DNA of 64,000 nt from an uncultured Syntrophaceae bacterium (GTDB lineage: Bacteria; Desulfobacterota; Syntrophia; Syntrophales; PHBD01), in NCBI GenBank assembly GCA_964578535.1, contig CAZODI010000008.1, forward strand, positions 1,815 through 65,814. Reading direction: 5' to 3'. Positions within the stretch are counted from its first letter, which is position 1. Each line of letters begins with the position of its first letter. A model generated the notes under the pieces. That model was not told the DNA's origin. It worked only from the letters and a program-made list of their open reading frames with translations, and ran no database searches. A program made the position numbers and the translations under genes. This document shows, piece by piece, positions 33,067-52,919 of this stretch.

Positions 33067-33244
33067 ATCGGCACCCGTCGGCTTGTCGTTTGGCGGTTCA
33101 CAGCGGTCCGGTGTTCCGGACGGGGAAAGGTTCAGCAGCCGGTGCAATACGACAGCGGGCCATGAAAATCAATCTGGTATTGCCGCCGCTGGACGTGTAC
33201 CATGATGCCTGTCGGAACCGATCCTCCGGAGGGAAAGAACGAGT

Positions 33245-37249: not shown

Positions 37250-38308
37250 TCATCCCTCGACAAAGCGCCTCCGCCAGGGTGCAAAAAGCGGAAAATGGAA
37301 GATGCCCGCCGGGGCGGCGCAGACTTCCGGAATGGCGTTGATGACCGACCCCGCCACGCCGTACTGTTCGGAACGCGTTCGGACCGTGGCGTCCTCCGGC
37401 TCCACGAGGTTCATGACGATGTCGATTCCCGGTTTCCCGCGAACGGAGATCTTCCAGTGGTCGAAATGCTCGAACCCGGGCACGGTGTTTCCCATCACCC
37501 AGTTCACTTCCAGCGTAATGAACCGCCGTCCGCCGATGATCCCGTGCCAGCGGTAGTTCGTCGCCGCCACCGTCCCCGCCTTCACGGTGCCGGCCCGGGC
37601 CGTGATGTCTCCCGATGCCGCCGTCACCCGGTGGTCCGGCTCCACCCGCTCCAGCACCAGGCCCAGGCGGTGGGCCAGAAGCGCGATCACCTCGGCGTAC
37701 ATCGCCGTGATCAACTGCGCGACGGGTCCGGACCCGGCGGGATCGAACCGCCCCGGATCGGAGCCCATCCCGCAGACGGTGAACACGTACTCATGATCCG
37801 GAGCGCCGCTGACGTCGAAGGTCTCCCGGACGGAGATGGATTCGATGTCCGTGCAGATGCCCGTGGCCGCGGCAGCGATCTTTTCCACAACGAAGCCCGG
37901 GTTCAGGCCTGTGCTGAAGAACGTCGAATTCCCCCGCCGGCAGGCCTCTTCGAACTCCGCCGCATACGCGGCGCCGTGCCAGGCCGGAAAGCCGTGTCCG
38001 TTGATGGTGATCAGATTCTTGCCCGAGGCCAGGATCCGGCAAATGTCCCGGTTGTGGTGGCTGTAGGGGAACTGGATGCGGGGCGCATGGATGACCACGT
38101 CGGCGTCGAGCGCCAGGATCTCGTCGATGCTCCGGGTGGCGATCACCCCTGTCTCGCCGCGACGCGCGATCTCGCCGGCGTCGAGGCCGGCCTTCCGCTC
38201 GCTGTAGACATAAAGGCCCGCCAGCTCCAGGTCCGGGTGATCGATGACGGCCCGCAGGCAGGTTTTCCCCATGGAGCCGGTGGCCCACTGAATGACACGG
38301 TATTTCAT
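37250..38308 (-). CDS. NAD(P)-dependent DapB-like / amine-dehydrogenase-family oxidoreductase
   Basis: RVIQWATGSMG Rossmann loop, K.GLDAGE, TGLNPGF; start MKYRV. Confidence 0.75.
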   Translation of the reverse strand: MKYRVIQWATGSMGKTCLRAVIDHPDLELAGLYVYSERKAGLDAGEIARRGETGVIATRSIDEILALDADVVIHAPRIQFPYSHHNRDICRILASGKNLITINGHGFPAWHGAAYAAEFEEACRRGNSTFFSTGLNPGFVVEKIAAAATGICTDIESISVRETFDVSGAPDHEYVFTVCGMGSDPGRFDPAGSGPVAQLITAMYAEVIALLAHRLGLVLERVEPDHRVTAASGDITARAGTVKAGTVAATNYRWHGIIGGRRFITLEVNWVMGNTVPGFEHFDHWKISVRGKPGIDIVMNLVEPEDATVRTRSEQYGVAGSVINAIPEVCAAPAGIFHFPLFAPWRRRFVEG

Positions 38309-38482
38309 GCGCTCCCCCCGGGAAAAGGTTTCCCCTGATATCTTTTCCGGGGAGATCGGGCAAGATAAACTTATCCGGTCTGCCTTTGGCTGCTCGACGG
38401 GGAATCCCGGAACGGTCCGGGGAATGGGGGGACCGGCCGGCCGGTTGCTGCACAGGGGGAAGGAGCGCACGGCCGGCCGGCT

Positions 38483-38511
38483 TCAGGGGGTCAGGGGGTC
38501 AGGGGGTCAGG
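38483..38511 (+). repeat. Short tandem repeat (TCAGGGGG)x3.6
   Basis: tcaggggg tcaggggg tcaggggg tcagg, just downstream of the 38523 gene stop. Confidence 0.85.
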
Positions 38512-38522
38512 AAGTCGGGCTG

Positions 38523-38792
38523 TCACTCCCGGTGAACGGTCAGCCCGAGGACGACGAAGAGCAGCAGGATGAAGCACACCCCCGTGATCAGGAGCGTCCG
38601 TCCGCTCAGCCACGAGGCCGAATCCGAAAAGATGGTGATGTCCCACAGCCTCCCCCAGTACACGAGAAAGCCGTACTGGACGAGCAGGGCCAGCTTCAGG
38701 CGGCCGAAGATCAGGCCGCCCGTGCTGATCAGCACAACGGCAAGGATGCTGGAAAAGGGAACGGCGACGTCCATCGACCAGATCGATTCCAT
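38523..38792 (-). CDS. Small hypothetical membrane protein (89 aa)
   Basis: RBS GGAGG; MESIWSMDVAVPFSSILAVVLI...; three hydrophobic segments. Confidence 0.6.
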   Translation of the reverse strand: MESIWSMDVAVPFSSILAVVLISTGGLIFGRLKLALLVQYGFLVYWGRLWDITIFSDSASWLSGRTLLITGVCFILLLFVVLGLTVHRE

Positions 38793-38894
38793 GTTCAACC
38801 TCCGAATATGCGAAAGGAGGCCGGCCCAGGAGGACGACCCGCGGGCCGGCGGGAGAATGCAGGATGGAGATTGCCAGAAGCGGAGGGGGGGGAT

Positions 38895-38910
38895 TGTGAC
38901 GGACGTCACA
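38895..38910. promoter_or_regulatory. Crp box (perfect consensus)
   Basis: TGTGA-CGGACG-TCACA, overlapping the crp-like stop codon, 103 nt upstream of the 89-aa gene. Confidence 0.7.
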
Positions 38911-39616
38911 CAAAATCGACTTTATGAAAATTCGGCGTGATGAGGATCCGCCGTTTCTCCAGCACGGAGATCTCCCCGGCCAGCTCCAGCCGCTTGAGGA
39001 TGCGGCTGACCGTCTCCCGGGAAAGGGACGCATAGTCGGCCAGTTCACTGTGGGTCATCCGGAGCCGGATCGCCGTGCCCCGCGCGTCCCTCGATCCGAA
39101 GCGGGACGCCATGTGGCCAAGGACCGCCCGGACCCGGTCTTCCGCCCGCTGCAGGTTCAGGACCTTGAGCATGAACCAGGAATCCCGCAGGCGCTCGCAG
39201 AGAAGGGAGATGATCTGCCGGACGGCGATCGGATTCTTGAGGAACCGGGTCTCAAAATCCGCCCGGCCGAGGAACCCGACCCGCGTATCCTCCAGGGCGA
39301 TCACCCTCGCCGGAGACGTCTTTCCGTCCAGGAGAGCCATTTCGCCGAAGAAATCGCCGCGCTTGTGGACGGCCAGGATCTGTTCCCGCCCCTCCTCGTC
39401 GATTTGCGCGACCTTGACCCGTCCTTCGTAGATCACGTAGAGGCAGCGCGGGGTGTCCTCCTCGAAGAGGATCACATCGTTCCGGCGGTAGTTCCTCTCT
39501 CCCATGACCATCCGCAGTTCGGCCACGTCCCCTCCGGGCAGGCCCCGGAAAATGGGAATTTCCTGGAGGAAAACGTTGGGGCGAATGCTCATGGCCGGCT
39601 GTTTCATCGTTGCCAT
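38906..39616 (-). CDS. Crp/Fnr family transcriptional regulator
   Basis: cNMP-binding barrel (FFGEMALLDG..SPA..A), HTH with LSRETVSR recognition helix; no Fnr-type Cys cluster. Confidence 0.93.
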   Translation of the reverse strand: MATMKQPAMSIRPNVFLQEIPIFRGLPGGDVAELRMVMGERNYRRNDVILFEEDTPRCLYVIYEGRVKVAQIDEEGREQILAVHKRGDFFGEMALLDGKTSPARVIALEDTRVGFLGRADFETRFLKNPIAVRQIISLLCERLRDSWFMLKVLNLQRAEDRVRAVLGHMASRFGSRDARGTAIRLRMTHSELADYASLSRETVSRILKRLELAGEISVLEKRRILITPNFHKVDFV

Positions 39617-39628
39617 TGCTGGAAAACC

Positions 39629-40411
39629 TCACGAACGCCTTTTGGTTGATTTCCGGGAGTTCCAATTGTGCCGCCGGTGATCCTGCTCCAGGCTCTCGAT
39701 CTGCCCGGCCGTCAGGATCCCCTTCCGGACGAAGAAATCGCCGAACCGGGGCTGCAGCAGTTTCTGCCATGCCGTCAGGCGGCGCAGCTGTCCTGCGTCC
39801 ATGTACCCGAGGCGGACGGCACACTCACCGAAACGCTCGCCGGACCGGCGGCGCTTCAGGATGACGAGAATATCTCCGCGGTCCAGCCAGCCCCACCCGC
39901 AGGCGATCACACCGACCGGAGGCCTCTGCCTCTGCTGCCATACCACGGCGTCGACCAGGATCCGGTGGGTAATCATGCCGGCGTAGTAGAGATAACGGCC
40001 GAAGAGGAGCCTCCCCCCGGGAATCGGCCCCGCGTGGACGTAATCCTGCACCGGGTCGCGCTTCCTTGGCGCTCTCTTCCCGAAAGGGGGGTCCTCCCCC
40101 GGCGCGGGGGACGCCGTACGGCGCGGATTTCCTTCGATCAGGCGGAACCGGGAGGGATTCTCCAGGTAGAGGCGGAGCCGTTCAAAAGCGGACTGGACCT
40201 CCTTGAACTGCTCCTCGAGAATGCGGGATTCGACGGCCAGCGAGAGGGCGCGATCCGGGTGGGTCTCCCGCGCCCGTTTCCGATAGGCCGCTTTCAAACC
40301 GGACATCTGCAGGGAATGGTTCAGAAACTGGACAGAGACGTCGGTCTGTTTTCCGAAAAGGACCTGACAGGCTTCGAACAGGTCGGTGGCGTGGATTTCG
40401 TTCTTTTGCAA
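39629..40411 (-). CDS. J-domain protein with C-terminal MshEN-like repeats
   Basis: LKAAYRKRARETHPDRA...F.EVQSAFERL J-domain; four FG/VG-x6-G motifs; TTG start after AGAGGA assumed (ORF extends to 40498). Confidence 0.82.
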   Translation of the reverse strand: MQKNEIHATDLFEACQVLFGKQTDVSVQFLNHSLQMSGLKAAYRKRARETHPDRALSLAVESRILEEQFKEVQSAFERLRLYLENPSRFRLIEGNPRRTASPAPGEDPPFGKRAPRKRDPVQDYVHAGPIPGGRLLFGRYLYYAGMITHRILVDAVVWQQRQRPPVGVIACGWGWLDRGDILVILKRRRSGERFGECAVRLGYMDAGQLRRLTAWQKLLQPRFGDFFVRKGILTAGQIESLEQDHRRHNWNSRKSTKRRS

Positions 40412-40664
40412 GCCGGTTCCTCTTTTGCCTCTGCGCAGATGTGAAAACGGGTCGGCTTCCCGTGGCAGCATTCGCGGAAGGCCTGTTTCCCATGCCATTA
40501 AAAGAAAGCCCGTTTCCTTGTCAACGCAAAAAGCAATCCCGCAGCCGGGATCCCGGGAACCGGCCGGTTCAGGACCGACTGGGGAAGGAAGCCGCCGTTT
40601 GCGGCAGGGAGGGGGTTTGAGGGAGGGTGAGCCGCGAATCCGTCGCGGCCCGGAACGGGGAAAC

Positions 40665-43019
40665 CTACTTGATGCAGACCCTCCGGACTTGCCGGAAGTC
40701 GGTGATGCCCCGCAGGGCTTTCTGGATGCCGTCCTGGAGGAGCGTGGACATCCCCTCGGACATGGCCTTGTCCCGCAGCGTCTCGACGGTCTCGCTCTTC
40801 TGGATGAGCCGTTTGATTGGGTCGCTCGCGATGAGAAGCTCGTGGATGCCCACGCGCCCCTTGTACCCGGACCGGTCGCAGAGGTCGCAGCCCCGGGGCC
40901 GGTACAGCGTCAGGTCGCTCGTGAAGGGAACGGCCAGCTCCTCAAACCGTTCCCTGCCGTAACTCTCCGCCATTTCGTCGAATTCTTTGCGATCGGGATG
41001 ATAGGGCTCGCGGCAGTTTTTGCACAGTGTCCGGACCAGCCTCTGGGCGAGGACGCCAAGAAGGGCATCGGCGAAGTTCAGGGGGTCGATGCCCATGTCG
41101 AGCAGCCGGATGATGGTCTCGGGGGCGCTGTTCGTGTGCAGGGTGCTGAAAACCAGATGGCCCGTCAGGGAGGCCTCCACCCCGGTCTTGGCCGTTTCAA
41201 AATCGCGCATCTCCCCCACCATGATCACATCCGGATCGGCCCGGAGAAAGGCCCGCATGGCCGTGGCAAAATCGAAGCCGATCTTGGGCTGCACCTGAAC
41301 CTGCCGGAGTCCGTACTGGGTGATTTCCACGGGGTCCTCGGCCGTCCAGATCTTCTTCTCCGGCGTGTTGATATGCCGCAGGGCCGCATGGAGGGTCGTC
41401 GTCTTTCCCGAGCCCGTAGGCCCGACCACCAGGATCATGCCGTAGGGCTTCTCGCAGATCTTCAGGAGTTCCGAATAGTTCCTCTCCAACATGCCCATGG
41501 CCTCCAGGGGCAGCGTTTCCCCCTTGGCAAGAAGCCGCATCACGACATCTTCGACCCCTCCCTGGGTGGGCAGCGTCGCCACGCGAAGCTCGATCTCGTC
41601 TCCAGGGGAGCGGCGGAACTTGATCTTGCCGTCCTGGGGAATCCGCTTCACCGTGATGTCCAGGTTGGACATGATCTTGATGCGCGACACGAGAGCGGCC
41701 CGATAGTTGAAGGGAACCGTCTGGTACACCGAGCAGTCGCCGTCGACGCGGAAGCGAACCTCCACGTTCTTCCGGCCGATGTTGGGCTCGACGTGGATGT
41801 CCGACGCCCGCCGGCTGACGGCGTCGTTGATGATCTTATTGACGAGCAGCATGATCGCGCTGTCCGACTCCGTGACGGCTTCTTCCCCGTCCTCACTTTC
41901 CTCCTCATCCACACCGTCCAGCCGGCCGATGATGTCCGAAATCGACGTTTCATCCCCATGGACCTGATAGAAATAGTTGATGAACCGGGAGATGTCCTCC
42001 GGAAGGGCCACGTCATAGCGGATGTCTTTTGTCTTCAGGAGGTTTTCAATCATGTCCCGCTTGATGATGTTGTCCGGGTCGCTCACCAGGATGTGGACGG
42101 TTCCGTCGGTCTTCTCGATGGGCACCCAGAGCTCCCGGAGCAGGTATTCCTTGTTGAGCCTGCTCAGGAGATCCGCGGGGATGGGGAACCGGTCGCTGAA
42201 CTGGACAACGCTGCAGCGGAAATATTCTTCCAGCGACGCTCCGAGATCTTCCTTCGAGATGCCGTGTTTCCGCATCAGGAAACTTTCCACGGTCTCCTTC
42301 TCTTCCCGGGCTTCTTCGCAGGCACGATCGAGCTCGTCTTCCTTCAGGAATCCTTTCCGGATGAGGGAGTCGAAGCGCGTCTTTCTCCGGCGGGCATAGC
42401 GTGCGTGGTTGGAAAGCGCGATGGCAAGGACTTCGGAAATCTCCTGGAGCAGCACGGGCTCCTCTTCGATGAACCGGCCGTCCCGCCCCGACTTGTTGAT
42501 CACCTCGATGACGCCGATGACCTCGCCCTCGTGAACGATCGGCGCGGCCATGACCTGCTTCAGGCGGACATTCGACCGGGCGTCCCGGTCGACCGCCAGT
42601 TCCAGTCCCTTGCAGCGCTTTTTCATCTCGGCCGGATCGTGGACGTCGGCGATGTTGATCAGGAAGCCCGTTTCGGCCACGTACCCGGGAATCGTCCGGT
42701 TGTTGACGGCCATCCTCTGTTCCCGGAACAGGCGCCCGGCCTTGGTGGTCGTGAAGATTTCCCTTCGCTGGCGGTCGACGGCATAGATGTTCACTGCTTC
42801 CACGCGGAAAAGATCCACGATCCGCCTGCTGCAGTCGGTGAATATCTGCGCCACGCTCTGGGAGGCGTAGATTTCGTTCGTGATGTCCTGCAGCTCGTTC
42901 TGGAGGCGGAGGATCTCTTCCAGTTCGTTGATTTCATGGAAGGGAACGTCTTTGCCGACGGGATGGGATCCCTGGGACGGCAGCGGATGGAGAGACTCCG
43001 CAGCAACGGACGATGTCAT
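40665..43019 (-). CDS. GAF domain-containing PilB/GspE family secretion ATPase
   Basis: N-terminal GAF (VIGVIEVINK..F..EE); RASDIHVEP, GPTGSGKTT, TAEDPVE, DPDVIMVGEMRD, TGHLVFSTLHTN, CKNC...CDLC. Confidence 0.93.
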   Translation of the reverse strand: MTSSVAAESLHPLPSQGSHPVGKDVPFHEINELEEILRLQNELQDITNEIYASQSVAQIFTDCSRRIVDLFRVEAVNIYAVDRQRREIFTTTKAGRLFREQRMAVNNRTIPGYVAETGFLINIADVHDPAEMKKRCKGLELAVDRDARSNVRLKQVMAAPIVHEGEVIGVIEVINKSGRDGRFIEEEPVLLQEISEVLAIALSNHARYARRRKTRFDSLIRKGFLKEDELDRACEEAREEKETVESFLMRKHGISKEDLGASLEEYFRCSVVQFSDRFPIPADLLSRLNKEYLLRELWVPIEKTDGTVHILVSDPDNIIKRDMIENLLKTKDIRYDVALPEDISRFINYFYQVHGDETSISDIIGRLDGVDEEESEDGEEAVTESDSAIMLLVNKIINDAVSRRASDIHVEPNIGRKNVEVRFRVDGDCSVYQTVPFNYRAALVSRIKIMSNLDITVKRIPQDGKIKFRRSPGDEIELRVATLPTQGGVEDVVMRLLAKGETLPLEAMGMLERNYSELLKICEKPYGMILVVGPTGSGKTTTLHAALRHINTPEKKIWTAEDPVEITQYGLRQVQVQPKIGFDFATAMRAFLRADPDVIMVGEMRDFETAKTGVEASLTGHLVFSTLHTNSAPETIIRLLDMGIDPLNFADALLGVLAQRLVRTLCKNCREPYHPDRKEFDEMAESYGRERFEELAVPFTSDLTLYRPRGCDLCDRSGYKGRVGIHELLIASDPIKRLIQKSETVETLRDKAMSEGMSTLLQDGIQKALRGITDFRQVRRVCIK

Positions 43020-44407
43020 GGAAGCCGGACCTTATCCATACCGACAGGCTCCACCATGGCCTGGACGACTCCCGGCGGCTCCTGGATAAACACGATCATG
43101 AACGGGGTCTCGCCTCCCGGGGGGACCGCGTTGTTCGCCTGCGGACCGGACCGGGCGGCCGAGAGAGCCAGGTGGAGATCCGGCTCTCCAAGGGTCTCCA
43201 GCTGATCGGCGGTCAACCCGCTCCCGCAGGAAACCATCCGCGCCGCCACGAGCACACCCCGGGAATCATAAAGCTCGCCGCGGATCCGGATCCCCGAGAC
43301 GCCTTCATGCCCCCTGTTGAACGCCATGCCCTCGACAACCCTGATTTCCCGGCCGAGAGCCACGTTTCTGACAAACCGGTGCCGCAGATTGACAATCCCC
43401 ACCTGCTCCGCCACGGGATTCCGGTCCGGCCTTCCAACCTCCAGGTATTGGCCGGCGAAGGGGACATTCACGGACAGCCAGCGGACCAGCCCCTGCCCGT
43501 CGGCGGGCCTGGCCAGGAAAAAGCCGAGGGCGGAGAGGGCCAGGGCAAGGCACAGGAGCAGGCCGATCAGAACCGGCGCGCGCCGTGACGTTCCACGGCC
43601 GGACGAAAGGACGGAACCGCTCCCCTGCTTCACCTCTTCCTTCCCGATATCCTCCGCCGTCTGCAGGGACAGACCGTTCTCGGCGGCCGCCTCTTCGATG
43701 GTTTTCCTGTCGATCCGCAGGGTCCGGTCCATTTCCGGTACGTCCCTGCGCACTTCCGGCGCCTCGGCCGACCGGCCGGCGTCCTGGAATTCCACGAAAG
43801 CGGGCGGGTCCTGCTTCGCCGGGGGCTCCGGCGGCTCCTCCGGCACGCCTTCAGCGGCCGCATCTTCCACATCCGGAGCCGGCTCCTGCACCGCCTCCAC
43901 CCCGGGCATGACGGGTGCCGCCGCCGTCTCCATTTCCAGCTTCAGGACCGGCGGCTCCTCCCGCACGACTTCAGCGGCCTCCTCATCCAGATCCGGGGCC
44001 GGCTCCTGCACCGCCTCCGCCCCGGGCACGACGGGCGCCGCCGCCGTCTCCATGTCCAGCTTCGGGACCGGCGGCTCCTCCCGTCTGCCTTCCACGGCGA
44101 ACTCTGCCGGATCCGATATGGGCTCCTGCAGCACCTCTTCCTGCAAAAGGGATAAGGGGCCCGCATCGTCCGTTTCCGGTTTCTGCCGGGGCACATCCTT
44201 TTTCTTAACCGGAACGGTGATGTCGAATTTCCCGAAAATCGCCGGATACGGCGTCACGGGCGTGACGGGATCGACGGGATCGACGGGATCGGACGGCTGT
44301 ATGTCCTCCATCGGCAGCGACGGGCCTGCGGCTGAAAATGTGGATAAAAAAGCCTCCAGTTCCTGCTTTTCACGGACCAGATCGAATGTCTCGTTCGGGA
44401 TGCTCAT
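43016..44407 (-). CDS. Membrane protein with acidic Pro-rich linker and C-terminal DUF3426-like domain
   Basis: Low-complexity N-terminal half, TM (VLIGLLLCLALALSALGFFL), C-terminal I.G.L.D..G...A....CG...VPPG...PFMIVF. Confidence 0.7.
   Translation of the reverse strand: MSIPNETFDLVREKQELEAFLSTFSAAGPSLPMEDIQPSDPVDPVDPVTPVTPYPAIFGKFDITVPVKKKDVPRQKPETDDAGPLSLLQEEVLQEPISDPAEFAVEGRREEPPVPKLDMETAAAPVVPGAEAVQEPAPDLDEEAAEVVREEPPVLKLEMETAAAPVMPGVEAVQEPAPDVEDAAAEGVPEEPPEPPAKQDPPAFVEFQDAGRSAEAPEVRRDVPEMDRTLRIDRKTIEEAAAENGLSLQTAEDIGKEEVKQGSGSVLSSGRGTSRRAPVLIGLLLCLALALSALGFFLARPADGQGLVRWLSVNVPFAGQYLEVGRPDRNPVAEQVGIVNLRHRFVRNVALGREIRVVEGMAFNRGHEGVSGIRIRGELYDSRGVLVAARMVSCGSGLTADQLETLGEPDLHLALSAARSGPQANNAVPPGGETPFMIVFIQEPPGVVQAMVEPVGMDKVRLP
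43850..44083 (+). repeat. Intragenic 120-bp direct repeat (two copies, 40 aa)
   Basis: Lines 43861-43980 and 43981-44083 are near-identical; protein EEPPV(P/L)KL(D/E)METAAAPV(V/M)PG(A/V)EAVQEPAPD. Confidence 0.9.
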
Positions 44408-44486
44408 CTTTGCCTTTCACTCCATGGAATCCGGTGTACCGCCGGTCCCGTGCACGTCGGAACGAATCCGGCACCCGGCCCGCCGT

Positions 44487-44645
44487 TCAGGCTTTCATAG
44501 CCTTAAGACCCTGCACGGCCGCATCCGGAACGGTGATCCGGATGACGTCGCTGCATTTCCTGCAGACCCGGATGATGACGGATTCCCTGATCTCGTCGGG
44601 TTCGATAACGATTCTTTCCCCGCACTCCTCACAGAAGACAATCAT
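44487..44645 (-). CDS. Small zinc-ribbon protein (52 aa), not in ORF track
   Basis: MIVFCEECGERIVIEPDEIRESVIIRVCRKCSDVIRITVPDAAVQGLKAMKA; CxxC-x19-CxxC, MJ0042-type. Confidence 0.75.
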   Translation of the reverse strand: MIVFCEECGERIVIEPDEIRESVIIRVCRKCSDVIRITVPDAAVQGLKAMKA

Positions 44646-44726
44646 GTCTCGGCAGCTCTCTTCGTCAGCATTTCAAGGTTCGCCCACCGGCGCGTCCGGC
44701 CCTTTTCTTTCCAGGCCCCGCTCCCG

Positions 44727-45884
44727 TCAAAGGACCGTCCCTGACCCCGGGTGCGAGGCTCCTTTGCCCCCCAGCCCCAGCTCCGCCCTCAGCGCCTCGA
44801 ACTCGCTGCGGATCATCTTCCGGACCTCTCTCCGGATCTCTTCCAGTGCGCAGGCAAAGGCATCGTGCGGCTCCATGGCCTTCACGGCCTCGCAGAAATC
44901 CGAACCGGTCTCTTCTTCCCTCTCGGGGTGTTGCTCCGCTTCGCTTTCTTCGGCCGTCAGCGTCACAGCAGGGGAGGCCGGGAGTCCGGCCGCGGGCGCA
45001 GGCTCGACATCCTCTTCCCCCGACGCCGGAACCGCCTCGGTCAAGGGCTCCCGGCTGTCCCCGGCGACAGGGACCCGATCCTCCCCGGCGGTCGCCCCCG
45101 TGCAGGAGGAAAGGTCGATCTTCTCCACCCAGTTCCTGTACTTCCCGATATCGACCACCAGGACGGCCCGCTTTGCCTCCTCCGCCATGGCCTTCGAAAG
45201 GAGAACCCGTTCCAGGTCGTCATATACGGAGAAAAGCAGCTTCACCGACTCGGTGTGGGAATCCCCCTGTTTGACCTGGATATAGCGCTCCAGGAAGCGA
45301 AGGATCCGGAGGAAGCCGAGAACGGTGCGCTCGTGGCGGTACAGCTCCTGCAGTCCGTTCAGCTCCCTGTCCAGCCTGCCCAGGATGGCATCGCTGATTT
45401 CCCATTCCAGCGACAGAATGATGCTTTTCAGCGTCTTGACCGGCGAGAACAGGGCCGGCGTGACCGTTTCGATATCGCCGAAAATCTGCTCGAAACGTCT
45501 GTCTCCGTCCTCGACTGCGCAGGGGTCCGCCGATCCGGGAGCCGATTCGATTTCCTCGAGACAGGGATGGGCTGCATCGGATTCCGGAACCGGATCCGGC
45601 GTTTCTTCCTCAAGAAGGATGTGATAGCGTCTGCCCGGATCGGGCTCCGGGGATTCGGCATCGCCGCTCACGTGTTCGTTCATCATGTCCGGAACTGCTG
45701 CCCTATCCCCTTCCCCACCGGCCTCCAGTGGAGTCTCAGCGCTGATTCCGTCCAGAATGGCCCTGGGATCGGCGGGATCCGGTCCCGCATTACGGCCGCG
45801 TTCCACGGAATCAAGGCCGATTCCGAACAGGACATCGAGGCGGTTTTCCACTTCCCGAACGAATGAAGATTCTTTCATCACCAA
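44727..45884 (-). CDS. Hypothetical acidic protein adjacent to mglA (possible scaffold)
   Basis: Overlaps the mglA stop; N-terminal helix EVENRLDVLFG, central helical domain SIILSLEWEISD, C-terminal helix IRSEFEALRAELG. Confidence 0.7.
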   Translation of the reverse strand: MVMKESSFVREVENRLDVLFGIGLDSVERGRNAGPDPADPRAILDGISAETPLEAGGEGDRAAVPDMMNEHVSGDAESPEPDPGRRYHILLEEETPDPVPESDAAHPCLEEIESAPGSADPCAVEDGDRRFEQIFGDIETVTPALFSPVKTLKSIILSLEWEISDAILGRLDRELNGLQELYRHERTVLGFLRILRFLERYIQVKQGDSHTESVKLLFSVYDDLERVLLSKAMAEEAKRAVLVVDIGKYRNWVEKIDLSSCTGATAGEDRVPVAGDSREPLTEAVPASGEEDVEPAPAAGLPASPAVTLTAEESEAEQHPEREEETGSDFCEAVKAMEPHDAFACALEEIRREVRKMIRSEFEALRAELGLGGKGASHPGSGTVL

Positions 45885-46495
45885 TCCCCGTTCTCCAGTT
45901 CCTTTTCCAGGGAGGCCATGGTCAGCGAGATGATCTTCTTCAGGGTTACAACGACGTTGTCTCCCTCCACGGCACTGGCTTCGAATGACGGCGCTTTCAA
46001 TACGCCGTTGAGATCCCGGTCCAGGGTCTCGACATCCAGCACTTCGATCCCCTGCTTTGCCAGATCCCGCTTGTTGTACTGGATGACCAGCGGCATCTCG
46101 AAAATGTTCTTGTTGTAGAGGGCGAGGTTCTCCTGGAGATTCATCAGGGACGCCACGTTCTTGTTTCTTCGCTCCGCCTCTGAATCGGCGACGAACACGA
46201 CGCCGTCCACCCCCTTCAGGACGAGCCGCCTCGTCGAGTTGTATTTCACCTGGCCCGGCACGGTGTACAATTGGATTTTCACGTCGTACCCGGCGATCTT
46301 GCCGATGTCGAAAGGAAAGAAATCAAAGAAGAGGGTTCGGTCGCCCTGTGTCTTGACCGTCACCATTTCGGAATTGATCTGCTCGCGGCACCGGCTGTAG
46401 ATGTATTCCAGGTTCGTCGTCTTGCCGCATCTTCCGGGACCGTAATAGACAATCTTGGCCTGGATGACCCGATCCTTCAGGTTGATGAATGCCAA
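45878..46495 (-). CDS. mglA: MglA Ras-like small GTPase
   Basis: KIVYYGPGRCGKTTN, DRTLFFDF, LYTVPGQ, QYNKRD, EASA. Confidence 0.95.
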   Translation of the reverse strand: MAFINLKDRVIQAKIVYYGPGRCGKTTNLEYIYSRCREQINSEMVTVKTQGDRTLFFDFFPFDIGKIAGYDVKIQLYTVPGQVKYNSTRRLVLKGVDGVVFVADSEAERRNKNVASLMNLQENLALYNKNIFEMPLVIQYNKRDLAKQGIEVLDVETLDRDLNGVLKAPSFEASAVEGDNVVVTLKKIISLTMASLEKELENGDW

Positions 46496-46568
46496 CGTCC
46501 GCTTCCTCCCTGCCCGACGCCTTCCGCGCTTTGCCTGCCCGGCCTGGTCCGGCCGGGTGATCCTGTTC

Positions 46569-46958
46569 CTAATCCAGAACCCGGGACAGCTCCTGGATGA
46601 CCTGGGCCATCTTCAGCCTCAGAAATCCAAGGGTTACCTCGTTGTCAAAGATGTTGACCAGCAGGAATTCTTCGTTCACCCGGCTGAAATAGATGCTCTC
46701 TTTCTGCCCCTTGTGAAAGAGGAGCGAGAATTCTTCCTCCCCGACGATCCTGGCCATGCTGCACATCGCTCCGAAATTGGCCGCAGCGAGTGCGGCCAGC
46801 GAATACATGTCCCGCGTCACCTGCCCGTTGTCGACCGTCACGATGATGTTGCCGGCCATATCGATCAGCATGGTGTTCTGGACACCCGACCCGATCAGGT
46901 TCTTCTGCAGGGTGTCCTGGATCCTGTCGAGGTGCTGACTGCCGAGGATCAGGCTCAT
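46569..46958 (-). CDS. mglB: MglB roadblock/LC7 GTPase-activating protein
   Basis: LIDMAGNII, LAALAAANFGA...ARIVGEEEF..LFH.G..ESIY, FDNEVTLGFLRL; directly upstream of mglA. Confidence 0.9.
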   Translation of the reverse strand: MSLILGSQHLDRIQDTLQKNLIGSGVQNTMLIDMAGNIIVTVDNGQVTRDMYSLAALAAANFGAMCSMARIVGEEEFSLLFHKGQKESIYFSRVNEEFLLVNIFDNEVTLGFLRLKMAQVIQELSRVLD

Positions 46959-47083
46959 GGCGACATCTCTCCCGGGCGGCGGTGGCCCGCGTGCATGTGT
47001 TTCTCCATCATCCTGTCAACTCCCGGTGATGCGCTGCCGTTCCGGCGGCGTCCGTGCCGCGGCCTGCCGCGGAAAGGCGCGCA

Positions 47084-47284
47084 TCAGTGGCTGATGGTGT
47101 TCAGGTTGCTCCGATCGAGGATCAGGTTGGCGGTTTCCTTCAGCTTCTTCACCATCTCCTCGGTATCCTTCATCTGGGCCGCCATGGACTGGGAAATTCC
47201 CGTCCTGGTCGCCAGCTCCATTCGTCCCTTGAGACCCGCCTGCTCCATGACGATCTCAAAGATCCGGACCATTTTTTCTCCCAT
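47084..47284 (-). CDS. Small conserved hypothetical protein B (66 aa)
   Basis: RBS AAGGAAGGGG; MGEKMVRIFEIVMEQAGLKGRMELATRTGIS...; paralog of 48691-48888. Confidence 0.75.
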   Translation of the reverse strand: MGEKMVRIFEIVMEQAGLKGRMELATRTGISQSMAAQMKDTEEMVKKLKETANLILDRSNLNTISH

Positions 47285-47304
47285 CGCCCCTTCCTTTCGC
47301 CTCT

Positions 47305-47676
47305 CTAGGAAACGACCGCATCTTCGAATGCGTTGATGATGCTGGGCAGAACGATATTCAGAAGCAGCCCAAGCTTGACCTGTTTCTTGTTGACGACGAT
47401 CGCCCACTGGTAATCGCCGAAGGGAATGGCCAGGATGCCCATGTTCCCGGCGACGTCGATGTAATAGTACTGGCCCAGCTCCACCGGATAGGTCTTCAGG
47501 CCCTCCCGGATGGACGCAGTGATTTCATTGAGCAGCGTGGCTCCGGCCGTATTGGACCGCTCCGTCGCCACCAGCACCTGCCCGTCCTCCGTAGAGACGA
47601 TGCTCGACGCAAGCAGCCCGTCTCCCAGATCCTTCTTCAAGCCTTCCAGGCAACCGTTCAGTTTCTGTATGTTCAT
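47305..47676 (-). CDS. Roadblock/longin-like protein
   Basis: RBS GGAGG; DLGDGLLASSIVSTEDG...LGLLLN pattern; homologous to C-terminus of 47773-48675. Confidence 0.75.
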   Translation of the reverse strand: MNIQKLNGCLEGLKKDLGDGLLASSIVSTEDGQVLVATERSNTAGATLLNEITASIREGLKTYPVELGQYYYIDVAGNMGILAIPFGDYQWAIVVNKKQVKLGLLLNIVLPSIINAFEDAVVS

Positions 47677-47772
47677 TACGCCTCCCCTTTAGAATGTTGG
47701 ATTCTCCTGCTTTACCATTCCCCGATTCCCGTCTTTCCGGGAATACAGTGCCGTCCCCTGCCCGCGGATCCT

Positions 47773-48675
47773 TCATCCGGACGGATCGCCCCGAGGCGGG
47801 ACCGCTCCATCACCGCCCGCTTCAAACGTCCTGGCAGCCTTGGGAACGATGGCGTTCAGGACCAGCCCCAGAGAGCATTTTGCGCTGTCGAACAGCATAC
47901 CCAGCTGATGCCCGTCGAAAAGAAGAACCATGAGCGTCAGCCCGTCCCTGAGGTTCATGATATAATGGCTGCCGAGCCCCTTCTGTTCCGGATCCCGTCC
48001 GAAGGCGCTCCGGAGGGATTCCGTCAACTGGATGAACAGCTGGGCCGTTCCCAGGGTTTTTCGGTCATGATGGGAAGCCAGGACCGTCCCGCCGTGAAGG
48101 TCCGCGATGCTTGCCGACAGGAGCGCATCCCCCATGTCCTCGCGAACGACCCGAAGGCACTGCTTGAACCGGTCTTCCCCCCTTCCGGGGGCTTCCATTT
48201 CCGCATCCGCGTCGGCTTCCGCTTCCTCCGCCGCCTCCGCACCCTGCCCGCCGGCCGCCTCGTCGCACCGCCGCGAAGACTCCATCAGGATCGACATGAG
48301 GCTCTTCTCGATCTTCCTGGTAAAGCCGCCTGCATCGACAATCCTCCGGATGTTGAGCCGGACGTTCTCCCAGGAGACCATCTCCATTGCGGCGTCTTCA
48401 GCCTCCAGGCCGTCGCAGGCGGCGTCGTAGAGGGCTCCCTGAACGAAGCAGAAGCGTCCCTGGCGGTCGGCGTCCCGGTAGACTTCCAGGATGCATGTCT
48501 GCTGGTCCATGGCGATGACCTGGAGAAAACTCGCCACCGGAAGGCCGCAGATCGGCCAGCGCTGCAATTCCTCTTTTGAGCCCTGTTTTTCCACGTGCGA
48601 CTGGGTCTCCGAAGAACCGTCATTGTGCACGATCAACCTGAGTTCTCTCCTGGCGGCGCCTTCCACTGGCCTCAT
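47773..48675 (-). CDS. DUF4388 domain fused to roadblock-like domain
   Basis: LPVASFLQVIAMDQQTCILEV...GRFCFVQGALYDA...AAMEMVSW; C-terminal DMGDALLSASIADLHGG...LGLVLN. Confidence 0.8.
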   Translation of the reverse strand: MRPVEGAARRELRLIVHNDGSSETQSHVEKQGSKEELQRWPICGLPVASFLQVIAMDQQTCILEVYRDADRQGRFCFVQGALYDAACDGLEAEDAAMEMVSWENVRLNIRRIVDAGGFTRKIEKSLMSILMESSRRCDEAAGGQGAEAAEEAEADADAEMEAPGRGEDRFKQCLRVVREDMGDALLSASIADLHGGTVLASHHDRKTLGTAQLFIQLTESLRSAFGRDPEQKGLGSHYIMNLRDGLTLMVLLFDGHQLGMLFDSAKCSLGLVLNAIVPKAARTFEAGGDGAVPPRGDPSG

Positions 48676-48690
48676 CTCCTGACCGAATCG

Positions 48691-48888
48691 TTACGGCGCG
48701 GTCTTGCCGCAAAGCGTTTCGTAGATATCGCTTGCCGCATGCTTGAACCGGTGAACGAGTTCCTCCGTGTCTTCCACGTCGACCGCCTGGCTCATGGATA
48801 TCCCCGTTCTCACGGCAAGTTCGAGCCGTCCCTTCAGCCCGGTTTTCTCAGTAACGAGTTCATAGATGCGCACCAGCTTTTCCCCCAC
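48691..48888 (-). CDS. Small conserved hypothetical protein A (65 aa)
   Basis: GTG start after GGAGGAG; MGEKLVRIYELVTEKTGLKGRLELAVRTGIS...GKTAP. Confidence 0.78.
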   Translation of the reverse strand: MGEKLVRIYELVTEKTGLKGRLELAVRTGISMSQAVDVEDTEELVHRFKHAASDIYETLCGKTAP

Positions 48889-48959
48889 CGTCTCCTCCGC
48901 ATCCGGTCCGGGGTATTCCGCTTCCGGAATTCACCGGCCATTCTGGTTGGTGTATCCGG

Positions 48960-49001
48960 ATTGTACGGATATTCACGATCTTGTCTGTGATGAAAATCAC
49001 A
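48960..49001 (-). promoter_or_regulatory. Crp box plus -10 element: class II Crp-type promoter of the mgl cluster
   Basis: TGTGA-TGAAAA-TCACA at 48986-49001; minus-strand TACAAT at 48965-48960; box centre about -41. Confidence 0.75.
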
Positions 49002-49341
49002 TTCGTATATTATTTCTATCGTCATTCTTCCGATGCCTCCGCCAATGACGCGGCAGGGACGCGGGAATGGATGGGCCGGCGTGAGAAAAAGGCACGGCGG
49101 GCCGGAGCGAGGAATGGGCAAAAGCGCGGATCGAGGGAACCTCTTGGGAAAGACATGAACAGGCTGGGAAAACCGGATCGCGATGATCCGTCAGGGCGCC
49201 AGGAAGGCCTTCGGCATGGCCGTCACGCGGGACGTGGCATCTGCACGCGCGGTGGTCTCCGTACCGGCCGTGGCCGGTCCGTTGAGTCGTACGGACCGGG
49301 CAGCGGCCGGCCGCATCGCGCATGCTATCATGCGGCTTCGT

Positions 49342-50640
49342 TCAGTAGAAGCGCAGGTTGTCGATCCAGAGGGATCCCCTTTTGTCCGCACGCTCGTCGA
49401 GGTCCGAGGGACAGACGCCAATCCGGATCGCCTCCACCCGCCCCAGGTCGAGGACCTGCCGGCCATGCCGGTAACCGGTGGCCTCGATGCCCTTGACCAC
49501 GATGATGCTCAGCTGATCGAAGGGGACCCGGACGGTCCGCCATTGCTCGCCCACGGGGTAGCGGGCAGACCACCGGTCCCGCATCCTCGGATTTTCGCGG
49601 TCCGAGATGTCGATGTTCGCGTAGGCGCGGGAAGGCTGGGAGGACCGGACCATGAACTCGATCCCTTTGAAGAGAGACAGGTCTCGCTTCCGGACGTTCG
49701 AAAGGGAGGGACATCCGGGCCCCTCGTACGGGTGCGTGAAATTGTAGTCCAGGCGGAGCGATTTCTTCGACCCGCCGGCCCCGCCGGTCATGTCGAGAAC
49801 CGTTTTGCCCACCCCTTTGCGCCACATTCCCATGTGCCACGAATAGTCCACGGATCCCGGCGCATACGATTCGAAGTCCTCCTCCAGGGCCTTCGCCTCG
49901 CGGCTTGCCTCGGCCCGGAAGAGCGGGACCAGCCCCTGGACGGCAACAACCGCCTGGCCCGTGGCCACATTGATGGCCCTCAGATGGACCTCCCAGGCGT
50001 CGCGCATCTCCGTCATCGTCCCCGTTACGATCAGGTCGGCCACCAGGAGCCTCGAGCGGGCATGGGCCGGGATCTCCGTGAGCCCGGAGGAGGCCAGTTT
50101 CATCTCTTCCATGACGGCCTGGATCTTCTGCCTCTCCACGACGACGAAGGACCCCGCTTCGACAAAGGCCGTACCCAGCTTTTCCGCCAGGATCGAGCCT
50201 GCCTCCCGGATGTTTCCCCTCAGGACCTCGATTTCGGCGACGGCGACTTTCTTCTTCGGAACGTCGATGACAAGGCCTGCCCCCGTTTTCAGGGCGGCTG
50301 CTTTTTCAAGGACAACCACAACGGTGTTTCCCGCAACCCTCCGGATCGTGCCCTTCTCTTCACCGATCACAATGGGCATGCCCTCCAGGAGAAGGGTCTT
50401 CCGGGCGATATCCTGGACGATGCGCTCGACGGGATCCGCGGAGGGTTTCCATTCCGGGGCCCGGCAGGCGAGGGTCACTTCCTTTCCGTCCACCGACTGC
50501 ACGGTTGCCGGAAGGGTCTGCACGGCCCCGAGGGCCTGTCCCTGAGGGGACGCGCCACACTCGGACACAGGCACGGTGAGGAGGAGAGCAGCGGCAAGGA
50601 GATGGAGTGCAGCCATCGGCAGGGTTCGGGTTCGCTTCAT
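49342..50640 (-). CDS. Secreted protein: CsgG/FlgO-like domain plus CIA30/CBM11-like domain
   Basis: Signal peptide; VAVAEI...FVVVERQKIQAVMEE...ADLIVTG; C-terminal SLRLDY...GIEFMV...WRTVRVPFDQL...LDLGRVEAIRI. Confidence 0.65.
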   Translation of the reverse strand: MKRTRTLPMAALHLLAAALLLTVPVSECGASPQGQALGAVQTLPATVQSVDGKEVTLACRAPEWKPSADPVERIVQDIARKTLLLEGMPIVIGEEKGTIRRVAGNTVVVVLEKAAALKTGAGLVIDVPKKKVAVAEIEVLRGNIREAGSILAEKLGTAFVEAGSFVVVERQKIQAVMEEMKLASSGLTEIPAHARSRLLVADLIVTGTMTEMRDAWEVHLRAINVATGQAVVAVQGLVPLFRAEASREAKALEEDFESYAPGSVDYSWHMGMWRKGVGKTVLDMTGGAGGSKKSLRLDYNFTHPYEGPGCPSLSNVRKRDLSLFKGIEFMVRSSQPSRAYANIDISDRENPRMRDRWSARYPVGEQWRTVRVPFDQLSIIVVKGIEATGYRHGRQVLDLGRVEAIRIGVCPSDLDERADKRGSLWIDNLRFY

Positions 50641-50987
50641 GATGCCTCCTGTGTGTTCGGAAGAGAAATGGGCGGGCACACGGCCCCGCCTGCGCGGGAA
50701 GTGTAAGAGAGCCGCCGGCGGGTGTCAATCGCAGATTGTGGCCCCGGTTGCGGCTTCGGCGACGGCCGCGGTTGCAAACCTGATCCGGAGGCGCATGTGT
50801 CGTGACGTCCGCACGGACGGCCGCACGGGGCCTGGAAATCGCATCCGTGGGTGTCATCAGGGATTGAAGCCCGGCCCGGATTCAGGTATGGAAGCCATAC
50901 CGGCCGGGAAGGCAAGCCGGCCGCACGGACAAACCTCTTCCCGGGCCTTTGTCGGGCCCGTCACGGCCTGTTCGAAAGGAGATGGAA

Positions 50988-52919
50988 ATGGATCGGCACC
51001 TGTTCACCCCCGGACGCATCGGAAACATGGAAATCAGGAACCGCATCGTCATGCTCCCCATGACGATGGGGTACTCGGAGCCCGACGGATCCGTCGGGGA
51101 CCGTTTCATCGCCTACTTCGCCGAGCGGGCGAAGGGCGGCACCGGCATGATCATTATCCCCTTCACCCCCATGTACGCCGGATCGCACATGGCGCCGGGC
51201 GTCTTCGACGACCGCTACCTGCCGGGAATCCGGCGGCTCACAGAGGCCATCCGGGCCCACGGGGCGAAGGCCGCCTGCCAGCTCATCACCTCCTACCATA
51301 TGGTCTTCCGGGACGGCGTGCCCGAGTTGATCGGCCCCTCGGCGGTCCCGAACCAGATGATGCGGGGAACCCCGCGGGCCCTCACGATCGAGGAGATCCA
51401 CCGGCTGGTCGACGACTACGGAAAGGCGGCCGGACGGGCACGCGCGGGCGGATTCGACGCCGTGGAGTTCATCGTCGGTGCGGGCTACCTGCTGAACCGC
51501 TTCCTGTCGCCCATCACGAACCAGCGCGAGGACAAGTACGGGGGAAGCCTGGAGAACCGGATGCGCATCGTCCTGGAGATCGTCGCCCGCATCCGCCGGG
51601 AGGTCGGCCATGACTTCCCGCTGGGGGTCCGCCTGAACCTGGAGGAGCAGATGCCGGGAGGGCACACCATCGAGGAGTCGAAAATCGTGGCCCGGGCCCT
51701 GGAGCAGGCGGGCATTGATTTTCTCAACACCTACACGGGCTGGCACGAATCGCGTGTCCCCACTGTGGCGTCCTTCGTGCCGAAGGGAGCCTTCGCCCCC
51801 CTGGCCGGGCAGATCCGGGGCGTCGTCGGCATTCCCGTCATCGCCTCCAACCGGATCAACGACCCGGAAACGGCCGAGCGGATCCTGGCGGACGGCCTCG
51901 CCGACTTCGTCGGAATGGGGCGGGCCCTGATCGCCGACCCGCACTTTGCCAACAAGGCAAAAGAAGGGCGCGCCGGGGAGATCGTCCCCTGCCTCGCCTG
52001 CGGCACCTGCCTGTCCGACATCATGGTCGTCTACAAGGACCCGCACTGCGGAGCCTCCGCAGGGTGCACCGTCAATCCGAGTACGGGGAAGGAGCTGCTG
52101 CATGCTGCGACGCCCGCCGTTCGTGCAAAAAAGGTCTTCGTGGCCGGCGGCGGACCCGCGGGCATCGAGGCGGCCATGACGGCGGCCGGAAGGGGGCACC
52201 GGGTCACCCTCTTCGAAAAGGAGCCGGAGCTGGGCGGCTGGATGCGGATCGGCTGCCTGCCGCCCCACAAGGAGGAGATCGCGAACCTCACCCGAAGCAT
52301 GGCACTCAGGGCCGCCGGGGCGGGCGTCGAATTCCGCCTGGGATGTGCCCTGGATCCCGGAACCGTGAAGAGCGAGCAGCCCGACGTCCTGGTCCTGGCT
52401 GTGGGCGCCGTCCCCATCGTCCCGAACATCCCGGGAGTGGACGCGGCCCACGTCGTTGCGGCCGAGGACGTCCTGACCGGGAAGAAGACCGTCCGGGGCC
52501 GTGTCGTCATCGTCGGCGGCGGCCTGGTGGGGTGCGAGACGGCGGAGTTCCTCGTCTCGAAGACGCAGGGTGTCGAGAGCGTCGCCGTCCTGGAGATGCT
52601 GGAGCGCCTGGCGCCGACGGTCGCAACGAGCTACAGGCCGTTTTTTCTGGGCATGCTGAAGATGCTGGGCATCCGTCTGGAGACCCGGACGACCGTCGAG
52701 GAGATCACCGCGCAGGGCGTGAAGGTGACCCGGAACGGGGAGTCCGAATTCATCGAGGCGGATGCCGTGGTCATTGCCGCAGGGCTCCGCCTCGACCCGG
52801 CGGTCATCGAGGGTTTCCGGGGAACGGCCCCGGAGGTCTACACCGTCGGAGACTGCGTCCGGCCCCGGATGATCCGGGAGGCCATGGAGGAAGGCCTGTC
52901 TGTCGGCCTGAAGATCTGA
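50988..52919 (+). CDS. NADH:flavin oxidoreductase, OYE family with Fe-S and FAD domains (FadH/BaiCD-like)
   Basis: LFTPGRIG...NRIVMLPM, NQREDKYGGSLENR, CLACGTC..CTVNP, VAGGGPAG, GGGLVGCE. Confidence 0.92.
   Translation: MDRHLFTPGRIGNMEIRNRIVMLPMTMGYSEPDGSVGDRFIAYFAERAKGGTGMIIIPFTPMYAGSHMAPGVFDDRYLPGIRRLTEAIRAHGAKAACQLITSYHMVFRDGVPELIGPSAVPNQMMRGTPRALTIEEIHRLVDDYGKAAGRARAGGFDAVEFIVGAGYLLNRFLSPITNQREDKYGGSLENRMRIVLEIVARIRREVGHDFPLGVRLNLEEQMPGGHTIEESKIVARALEQAGIDFLNTYTGWHESRVPTVASFVPKGAFAPLAGQIRGVVGIPVIASNRINDPETAERILADGLADFVGMGRALIADPHFANKAKEGRAGEIVPCLACGTCLSDIMVVYKDPHCGASAGCTVNPSTGKELLHAATPAVRAKKVFVAGGGPAGIEAAMTAAGRGHRVTLFEKEPELGGWMRIGCLPPHKEEIANLTRSMALRAAGAGVEFRLGCALDPGTVKSEQPDVLVLAVGAVPIVPNIPGVDAAHVVAAEDVLTGKKTVRGRVVIVGGGLVGCETAEFLVSKTQGVESVAVLEMLERLAPTVATSYRPFFLGMLKMLGIRLETRTTVEEITAQGVKVTRNGESEFIEADAVVIAAGLRLDPAVIEGFRGTAPEVYTVGDCVRPRMIREAMEEGLSVGLKI

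Follow-up and report, generated by a model that had tools for sequence, protein, structure and literature searches.

A conserved MglA/MglB gene module linked to a PilB/GspE-family ATPase in an uncultured Syntrophaceae bacterium: a candidate polarity system under predicted Crp control

A 64-kb stretch of contig CAZODI010000008.1 (hereafter the window), from an uncultured Syntrophaceae bacterium, encodes MglA, a small GTPase, together with its partner MglB in a cluster of 13 co-oriented open reading frames (ORFs) on the minus strand, at positions 38523–49001. An earlier reading of the sequence alone, here called the original prediction, had taken this cluster for an undescribed small-GTPase system for polarity and pilus-motor control, regulated by Crp. 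Comparison with related loci revealed a conserved core consisting of MglB, MglA, an acidic scaffold-like protein and a zinc ribbon. An ATPase of the PilB/GspE family with GAF, MshEN and T2SSE domains is linked to this core in at least four ATPase lineages and in three gene arrangements. We consider it somewhat better than even (probability roughly 0.55) that an MglA-centred polar module positions or gates this ATPase as a dedicated type-IV-filament motor.

The comparison covered 132 related loci (numbered L001 onwards). A scan of metagenomes with scaffold peptide patterns gave 45 loci with 27–86% identity, on which all cluster proteins were scored. The mglA gene is located directly upstream of the scaffold gene in 33 out of 34 informative loci, and a zinc-ribbon gene is found downstream of the scaffold gene in 28 out of 31. 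When only the 12 loci with complete flanks are counted, a PATAN protein is present in 11 and the ATPase in nine. PATAN and Roadblock proteins are the usual partners of the core.

The arrangement of the linked genes varies between lineages. Smithellaceae-type loci encode, in this order, a response regulator, a PATAN-Roadblock protein, a Roadblock protein, one small protein, MglB, MglA, the scaffold, the zinc ribbon and a DUF3426 protein, and a GAF-MshEN-T2SSE ATPase is always encoded about 8 kb upstream on the same strand. The receiver-domain gene forms the head of this operon (L084 4653–7939; L086 4555–7875), and a divergent gene pair encoding a periplasmic binding protein and a 4HB_MCP_1 sensor with no obvious signalling domain lies between it and the ATPase gene. 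In L114 the order is PATAN, Roadblock, MglB, MglA, scaffold, zinc ribbon, membrane protein, PilZ and GAF-ATPase, with the PilZ-domain gene (4283–4627) directly upstream of the ATPase gene. L123 has a prepilin peptidase (A24) gene (8214–9041) beside mglA, which is followed by the scaffold, a zinc ribbon-Cache-HAMP protein, PATAN, a receiver (REC)-PATAN fusion, a small protein and an ATPase that belongs to the same subfamily but differs in its N-terminus. L129 and L131 encode the zinc ribbon-Cache-HAMP protein, REC-PATAN and a TPR protein, and no ATPase. The genes for the J-domain protein, Crp and the small membrane protein were found in the window clade only.

The predicted link between the GTPase switch and a secretion-type ATPase is thus borne out: across four ATPase lineages and three gene orders, the two lie side by side or close together. 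The original prediction had also taken all 13 genes as one system, and had proposed as a check that the mgl half and the ATPase-J-Crp half be compared in relatives. The ATPase passes this comparison, being syntenic in relatives in rearranged form; J and Crp are confined to the window clade. We therefore rejected the J-domain protein and Crp as parts of the conserved system; the 13 genes do not form one conserved unit.

The 13 ORFs are present in the ORF list as placed, and ORF list, domain searches and fold evidence agree with the domains first assigned to them. All are on the minus strand and are given here in the direction of transcription, with lengths in amino acids (aa):
48691–48888, minus: small protein A, 65 aa; GTG start, Shine-Dalgarno (SD) sequence GGAGGAG; no family match
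47773–48675, minus: fusion of PATAN (DUF4388) and a Roadblock-like domain, 300 aa; PF14332, E 1.7e-9
47305–47676, minus: second Roadblock-fold protein, 123 aa, MglC-like by fold; AlphaFold2 (AF2) model and Foldseek
47084–47284, minus: small protein B, 66 aa; paralogue of small protein A
46569–46958, minus: MglB, Roadblock GTPase-activating protein (GAP), 129 aa; Robl_LC7, PF03259, E 8e-10
45878–46495, minus: MglA, small Ras-like GTPase, 205 aa; E 1e-54 against MglA structures
44727–45884, minus: acidic "scaffold", 385 aa; no Pfam match; follows mglA
44487–44645, minus: stand-alone MJ0042-type zinc ribbon, 52 aa; CXXC-X19-CXXC, weak Pfam Zn_ribbon_4
43016–44407, minus: bitopic membrane protein with periplasmic DUF3426, 463 aa; PF11906 above cutoff
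40665–43019, minus: GAF-MshEN-T2SSE ATPase (PilB/GspE family), 784 aa; PF00437, E 2.7e-119
39629–40498, minus: J-domain (HPD) protein with two C-terminal MshEN_N-like 24+5+24 units; DnaJ and NF053729
38906–39616, minus: Crp/Fnr-family regulator; cNMP_binding, E 8e-26, and HTH_Crp_2
38523–38792, minus: small membrane protein, probably 89 aa; SD and ATG read from the sequence; no family match

The mglB gene is located 73 nt upstream of mglA. The start of the scaffold gene overlaps the mglA stop, and the DUF3426 gene stop and the ATPase gene start overlap by 4 nt; the mgl half therefore continues straight into the ATPase gene, and the DUF3426 and ATPase genes are translationally coupled in the window. 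The J gene is separated from crp by 12 nt, and crp and the small membrane ORF overlap by 4 nt. The start of the latter is probably the ATG at 38792, which is preceded by an SD sequence (GGAGG), instead of 38909. L002 lacks the first ATG of the J gene (40498); the next in-frame ATG is at 40471. No Rfam family matched anywhere within 37500–51000.

The ATPase belongs to the T2SSE superfamily. It has a Walker A motif (GPTGSGKTT), a Walker B motif (DPDVIMVGEMRD), the Asp and His boxes and a CxxC...CxxC tetracysteine motif, and Pfam recognises its MshEN domain with E 1.8e-14. Its neighbourhood was scanned using the N-terminal half as a query, with one genome per species and 80 loci. The cluster was found in three of these (L001–L003), all close relatives in which the flanking genes are also syntenic. 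The other 77 loci carry a paralogue of the ATPase (~65% identity), and no cluster gene lies within 10 kb of it. This stand-alone paralogue is nearly universal in Syntrophales (L055, L060, L081 at 10001–12292, and 70 or more others); in Syntrophus aciditrophicus it is found alone between Germane/EF-G genes and mutS. Both paralogues occur together in two genomes (L001 with L055; L003 with L060). The possibility that the window ATPase is simply the widespread Syntrophales GAF-GspE gene was rejected, the latter being the separate stand-alone paralogue. The ATPase had originally been called an orphan, which is incorrect: its lineage travels with the mgl module, and the true orphan is the paralogue located elsewhere in the genome. 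In a neighbor-joining tree, calculated with no outgroup and with the L005 ORF excluded, the window clade, the Smithellaceae type and the orphans each received 100% bootstrap support, orphans and window clade grouped together at 97%, and mgl-linked forms were found on three of the four main branches.

The switch proteins themselves are readily recognised. MglA matches the MglA structures of Myxococcus xanthus and Thermus thermophilus, contains the P-loop and NKRD, and in the alignment with 6h17_A (E 1.3e-54) TVPGQ and DRTLFFDF are conserved. It is a Ras-like G domain of Group 1 type, with Thr in PM3 (TxxGQ), an intrinsic Arg finger and the catalytic Gln. MglB matches the NCBIfam MglB model with E 6e-18 and 65 bits, under the equivalog cutoff of 200; as a Roadblock/LC7 GAP gene beside mglA it completes an MglA/MglB module.

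Two additional proteins appear to share the Roadblock fold. Pfam did not detect Roadblock in the 123-aa protein or in the PATAN fusion protein. Searches of the 123-aa protein against PDB by phmmer and by profile gave zero matches, and its hhalign comparison with MglB gave a probability of 4.9%; its assignment therefore rests on the structural model and Foldseek. The AF2 model, predicted from a single sequence, has the order alpha-beta-beta-alpha-beta-beta-beta-alpha (predicted local distance difference test, pLDDT, 71), and the top Foldseek matches were MglB, MglC, Rag C-terminal domains and LAMTOR (probability 1.0). The protein is 70–77% identical across Syntrophales loci. The C-terminal half of the PATAN protein is a paralogue of it (28% identity, E 2e-17). 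The PATAN-Roadblock protein has relatives of 42–48% identity in Smithellaceae-type loci and no PDB relative by sequence. No receiver domain, as found in PatA-type regulators, is present in the window protein, its partner domain being Roadblock-like; REC-PATAN fusions are found in L123 and L129. Small proteins A and B are related as paralogues (58% identity), with no Pfam or PDB match and no known relatives; Smithellaceae-type loci have a single copy.

The scaffold belongs to a large family that has no Pfam domain. A search of 1.84 billion representative proteins gave 816 cluster representatives related to it, 607 of them at E <= 1e-10. The relatives are often 700–1350 aa long and consist of an N-terminal motif, one to three helical domains of ~110 aa, an acidic linker and a C-terminal amphipathic helix; long members contain ~25% Asp+Glu. 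The window protein has the N-terminal motif, one ~110-aa helical domain, an acidic and Pro-rich linker and the C-terminal helix. Its likeness to the polar hubs PopZ, FimV and HubP is compositional only. Two relatives are labelled "FimV" by one source, a label that is probably based on composition alone.

The zinc ribbon is weakly matched by Pfam Zn_ribbon_4 in the window and strongly in relatives (E 4e-14). The zinc ribbon following the scaffold gene is fused to FHA in L117 (6607–7095) and L119 (5881–6507), and to a transmembrane (TM)-Cache-HAMP protein in L123 (11079–12434) and L129 (11194–12327). Judged from these fusions, it appears to behave as a portable adaptor. DUF3426 scored 30.4 bits (cutoff 27.7). 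The three elements that ZitP unites in a single protein (zinc ribbon, TM segment and DUF3426) are all present here, split over two genes. The cytoplasmic Pro/Glu-rich part of the DUF3426 protein contains a 120-bp (40-aa) tandem repeat at 43828–44115 (2.1–2.4 copies, 84–91% match), and a 9-bp repeat (x3.6) is located in the same gene at 44264–44296.

The J protein contains an HPD tripeptide, read in the sequence as THPDR, as expected of a J-domain co-chaperone; PF00226 matched with E 3.4e-6 (27.5 bits against a cutoff of 27.8). Its C-terminal part matches the MshE-related cyclic di-GMP (c-di-GMP) motif NF053729 with E 2.6e-9 (36.7 bits against a cutoff of 38), in three stretches, and R and Q are kept in the third motif. 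The MshEN domain has been described as two 24-residue RLGxxL(L/V/I)xxG(L/V/I/F)(L/V/I)xxxxLxxxLxxQ motifs with a 5-residue joint (PMC12943098). No description of a J-domain-MshEN architecture was found in the literature.

Inspection of the regions around and within the cluster revealed the following predicted transcription signals:
48986–49001, palindrome without strand: perfect CRP-type site TGTGATGAAAATCACA, upstream of the first gene
48960–48987, minus: sigma-70-like promoter CAGACA-16-TACAAT of the main operon, predicted by consensus scan
40535–40552, minus: terminator-like hairpin and T-run after the ATPase gene, predicted
40497–40524, minus: promoter-like TTGACA-N16-T(T/C)TAAT before the J gene, read from the sequence
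38895–38910, palindrome without strand: second perfect CRP-type site, overlapping the crp stop codon, from a pattern scan of the window

The 64 kb contain exactly two perfect TGTGA-N6-TCACA sites, and these bracket the cluster; by our base-composition estimate ~0.025 would be expected in the window. In 1.89 Mb of related loci we found eight perfect sites, all of them at the cluster's two positions in four clade members. The site at 48986–49001 is kept in L001, L002, L003 and L088; its half-sites are invariant there, whereas the spacer varies. Its centre is ~40.5 nt upstream of the predicted transcription start, which corresponds to class II geometry, and GACA plus a good -10 (TACAAT or TAATAT) is kept in the main promoter of all five clade members. 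The second site lies ~110 nt upstream of the point where the small membrane protein probably starts, and may serve autoregulation or control of downstream genes. The recognition helix of Crp reads RETVSR, which matches that of E. coli CRP. The window thus encodes a Crp-family protein together with a TGTGA-N6-TCACA operator at promoter distance, as would be expected of a CRP regulon. Two perfect, phylogenetically footprinted sites, one of them at class II distance from a conserved promoter, make regulation by Crp bioinformatically well supported, and this part of the original prediction stands. In Smithellaceae-type loci a response regulator and the divergent MCP-like (chemoreceptor-type)/binding-protein pair take the place of Crp. 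Crp control of the cluster is read as a lineage-specific rewiring.

A hairpin and T-run after the ATPase gene are also present in L001, L002, L003 and L088, with stems that differ, and the promoter-like element before the J gene is found in all five clade members within otherwise diverged intergenic sequence. The scan did not flag this element because its -10 lacks an A at position 2. Together, the two elements predict two transcription units. No conserved element was found in the gap between small protein B and mglB.

Unit 1 would extend from small protein A to the ATPase (48888 to 40665). It would comprise the MglA and MglB switch, two further Roadblock proteins, one of them fused to PATAN, the acidic and largely disordered hub-like protein (translationally coupled to MglA), the zinc ribbon and DUF3426 proteins as a split ZitP-like pair, and the ATPase. 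In the proposed mechanism, MglB and the extra Roadblock partners confine MglA-GTP in space, and MglA-GTP would bind the acidic hub, which may be tied to the membrane or pole by the zinc ribbon and the DUF3426 membrane protein. PATAN would contact the N-terminal region of the ATPase, which would thereby be placed or licensed at one site and could power a type IV pilus-like machine whose genes lie elsewhere. Unit 2, with the J-domain/MshEN-like protein, Crp and the small membrane protein, would be a lineage-specific add-on. Crp would activate unit 1 from the class II-type site, and the J protein might link c-di-GMP to Hsp70 acting on either the ATPase or the hub. The inputs would differ by lineage, being Crp and a J protein with a c-di-GMP motif here, and receiver, Cache-HAMP, FHA and PilZ domains elsewhere.

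Several of these proposed contacts have precedents in other bacteria. PATAN has been shown to bind the N-terminal domain of the extension ATPase PilB1, and also PilC (10.1101/2021.06.11.447907). In Myxococcus, PilB is recruited by MglA via the effector SgmX (PMC11580455). Pilus biogenesis depends on the polar protein ZitP (zinc ribbon-TM-DUF3426), whose zinc ribbon binds PopZ, an acidic hub (PMC5182063). In cyanobacteria DnaK/DnaJ3 act at active type IV pilus (T4P) motors (PMC9239167), and c-di-GMP is routed to PilB-type ATPases by PilZ and MshEN (PMC12943098, PMC11580455). The pilus-motor control that was originally proposed is inferred from homologues. What the analysis shows directly is the gene content, the folds and domains, the synteny and the conservation of CRP sites and promoter elements; the protein contacts and the polarity role are, like the pilus output, inferred.

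The cluster shares a bona fide MglA (TxxGQ, intrinsic Arg), an adjacent MglB Roadblock GAP, an extra Roadblock paralogue (compare MglC) and a presumed PilB-type ATPase output with the system of Myxococcus xanthus. It differs in that no homologue of RomR, RomX, SgmX or FrzS was seen in the window, the partners being the PATAN-Roadblock fusion, acidic hub, zinc ribbon and DUF3426 protein; moreover, the ATPase is encoded in the same operon and MglB has no long C-terminal extension. The cyanobacterial PatA-type regulators PixE, PixG and LsiR, which bind PilB1 and PilC, resemble it in having a PATAN gene near a PilB-family ATPase, and PATAN is fused to a receiver domain in distant relatives of the locus, whereas the window PATAN is fused to Roadblock, and its coupling is to a small GTPase in place of a chemosensory kinase. 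The Caulobacter ZitP/PopZ/CpaM system shares the CXXC-X19-CXXC zinc ribbon, the periplasmic DUF3426 on a bitopic protein and a neighbouring acidic disordered protein with conserved termini, PopZ-like in composition only; here there are two polypeptides, no PopZ-model match and no CpaM. MshE/PilB2 ATPases and the FimX-PilZ-PilB route have in common with it the MshEN domain of the ATPase and a separate MshEN_N-like (window) or PilZ (L114) protein gene beside the ATPase gene, but the ATPase motif is off consensus, a GAF domain is added at its N-terminus and the protein with the c-di-GMP motif carries a J domain. The actinobacterial conservons (CvnA-D) and the eukaryotic Rag-Ragulator are alike in that a small GTPase is joined by several proteins of Roadblock fold plus a sensor or scaffold, and unlike in GTPase group, partner set and output; in our comparison of systems no histidine kinase was counted in the window, and a MASE11-PAS hybrid histidine kinase is located at 10813–13455.

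A number of observations weigh against the proposed polar module with a pilus motor. The ATPase scores under the equivalog cutoffs of both PilB (TIGR02538, 500.7 bits vs 675.65) and GspE (TIGR02533, 483.2 bits vs 630.25), and its MshEN motif reads RFD in place of the c-di-GMP consensus RLG, with altered spacing. The scaffold matches no PopZ or FimV model, and the model of its domain is of low confidence (pLDDT 51). The Roadblock model is a single-sequence prediction of which one out of five models was good. The promoters and terminator are consensus-level predictions, terminator-like matches over the region numbering 14 against 11 expected. The synteny sample consists mostly of Syntrophales, and the distant loci carry no taxonomic label. 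Most seriously, genes for pilC/gspF, pilin, secretin, pilM-O and pilT are absent from the window and from most related loci. In none of the frames of the window was a prepilin-type signal detected, and a scan of its 30 other major ORFs revealed no pilC, secretin or pilT. The lack of pilC/gspF and pilins in the window had been noted originally, and the two scans confirm it.

These points leave room for a conserved module with a non-pilus output, which we regard as possible though rather unlikely. It could serve T2SS-like (type II secretion system) secretion, syntrophic cell-cell attachment or the positioning of membrane sensors, or the ATPase might be a nucleotide-sensing regulator and not a motor. 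The missing pilus structural genes and low equivalog scores fit such an output, as do the unusual GAF or TPR-like N-terminus of the ATPase and the three out of 12 fully flanked loci where the core has no ATPase within 10 kb. The zinc-ribbon partner in other lineages is a Cache-HAMP sensor or FHA protein, which would point to a general signalling scaffold. A pilus output is nevertheless favoured by the prepilin peptidase gene in L123 and the PilZ gene in L114, by the retention of every catalytic box and the tetracysteine motif in the ATPase, and by experiments tying PATAN, MglA and ZitP each to T4P ATPases or pilus biogenesis.

The cluster might also be a chance juxtaposition in one lineage, with a standard mglBA module lying beside a secretion ATPase and a J/Crp pair that are unrelated to it and share no function with it. 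The full 13-gene order is indeed restricted to close relatives with syntenic flanks (L001–L003, L088), no other locus has the J, Crp or membrane genes, and a close ATPase paralogue stands alone in 77 loci. Yet the ATPase-mgl linkage recurs, rearranged, in divergent lineages, the DUF3426 gene shares 4 nt with the ATPase gene and all eight perfect CRP sites in the related loci fall at the cluster's two positions. Chance is very unlikely as an explanation, and for the ATPase it has already been largely refuted. Likewise, we think it unlikely that Crp does not regulate the mgl operon and that the palindromes serve crp autoregulation and downstream metabolic genes, or another Crp/Fnr paralogue. In favour of this, one site overlaps the crp stop and precedes the membrane protein gene and a diaminopentanoate-dehydrogenase-like gene, the ligand pocket of Crp is atypical, which also counts against the proposed control, and no cyclase gene was found among the other window ORFs scanned. 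The other site is, on the other hand, at ~-40.5 from a conserved promoter with half-sites invariant across four relatives, and the recognition helix matches that of E. coli CRP.

To our knowledge, almost all that is understood of polarity control by MglA/MglB comes from Myxococcus, with effectors and motors dispersed across its genome. In the window, one operon packs together the switch, a candidate effector, a membrane anchor, adaptors and the motor ATPase, and conservation of the core extends far past a single genus. This would offer candidate direct partners: MglA and the acidic hub, the zinc ribbon and the hub, and PATAN and the ATPase N-terminus. It also suggests that three separately studied polarity systems share parts. 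Pili of syntrophic Desulfobacterota have a proposed role in aggregation and electron transfer, and the module bears on pilus control in these organisms.

A wider interpretation can be offered tentatively, as possible and not probable. The acidic protein following mglA may represent a large unrecognised family of MglA effectors, acting as PopZ/FimV-like polar hubs that are read by the portable zinc-ribbon adaptor and by PATAN-Roadblock platforms, and forming a Rag-Ragulator-like assembly of GTPase, Roadblock proteins and scaffold that places a PilB-like motor. The family comprises more than 800 sequence clusters with some members of more than 1,300 aa, and the adaptor is found either as a protein of its own or in fusions with DUF3426, Cache-HAMP or FHA. 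If true, this interpretation would unite Myxococcus MglAB, cyanobacterial PATAN-PilB and Caulobacter ZitP-PopZ in one machine. The term "undescribed" was only partly justified: no paper on the assembly was found, including any description of the scaffold family, the zinc-ribbon/DUF3426 link or the dedicated ATPase, whereas the PATAN-MglB/MglA neighbourhood had been noted before (Makarova 2006, as cited in PMC4316618).

Upstream of the operon, at a distance of 453 nt and on the same strand, is a gene for a CsgG/FlgO-like lipoprotein (49342–50679). It is present in L001 and L088, found as a fragment in L003 (40% identity over ~60 residues) and absent from L002, and is probably not part of the system. 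Long antisense ORFs on the plus strand (40386–43205, 43317–44744 and others, up to 939 aa) face the real genes; the source DNA is ~62% GC, and because of this high GC content they are regarded as artefacts and not as genes. Elsewhere in the window, two paralogous-looking regulators (18335–19972 and 31480–33147) each contain three PAS domains and a LuxR/GerE helix-turn-helix. The ORF at 30084–31475, adjoining a DEAD-box helicase gene, encodes complete eukaryote-type Hexokinase_1 and Hexokinase_2 domains (E ~1e-59), which are uncommon among bacteria.

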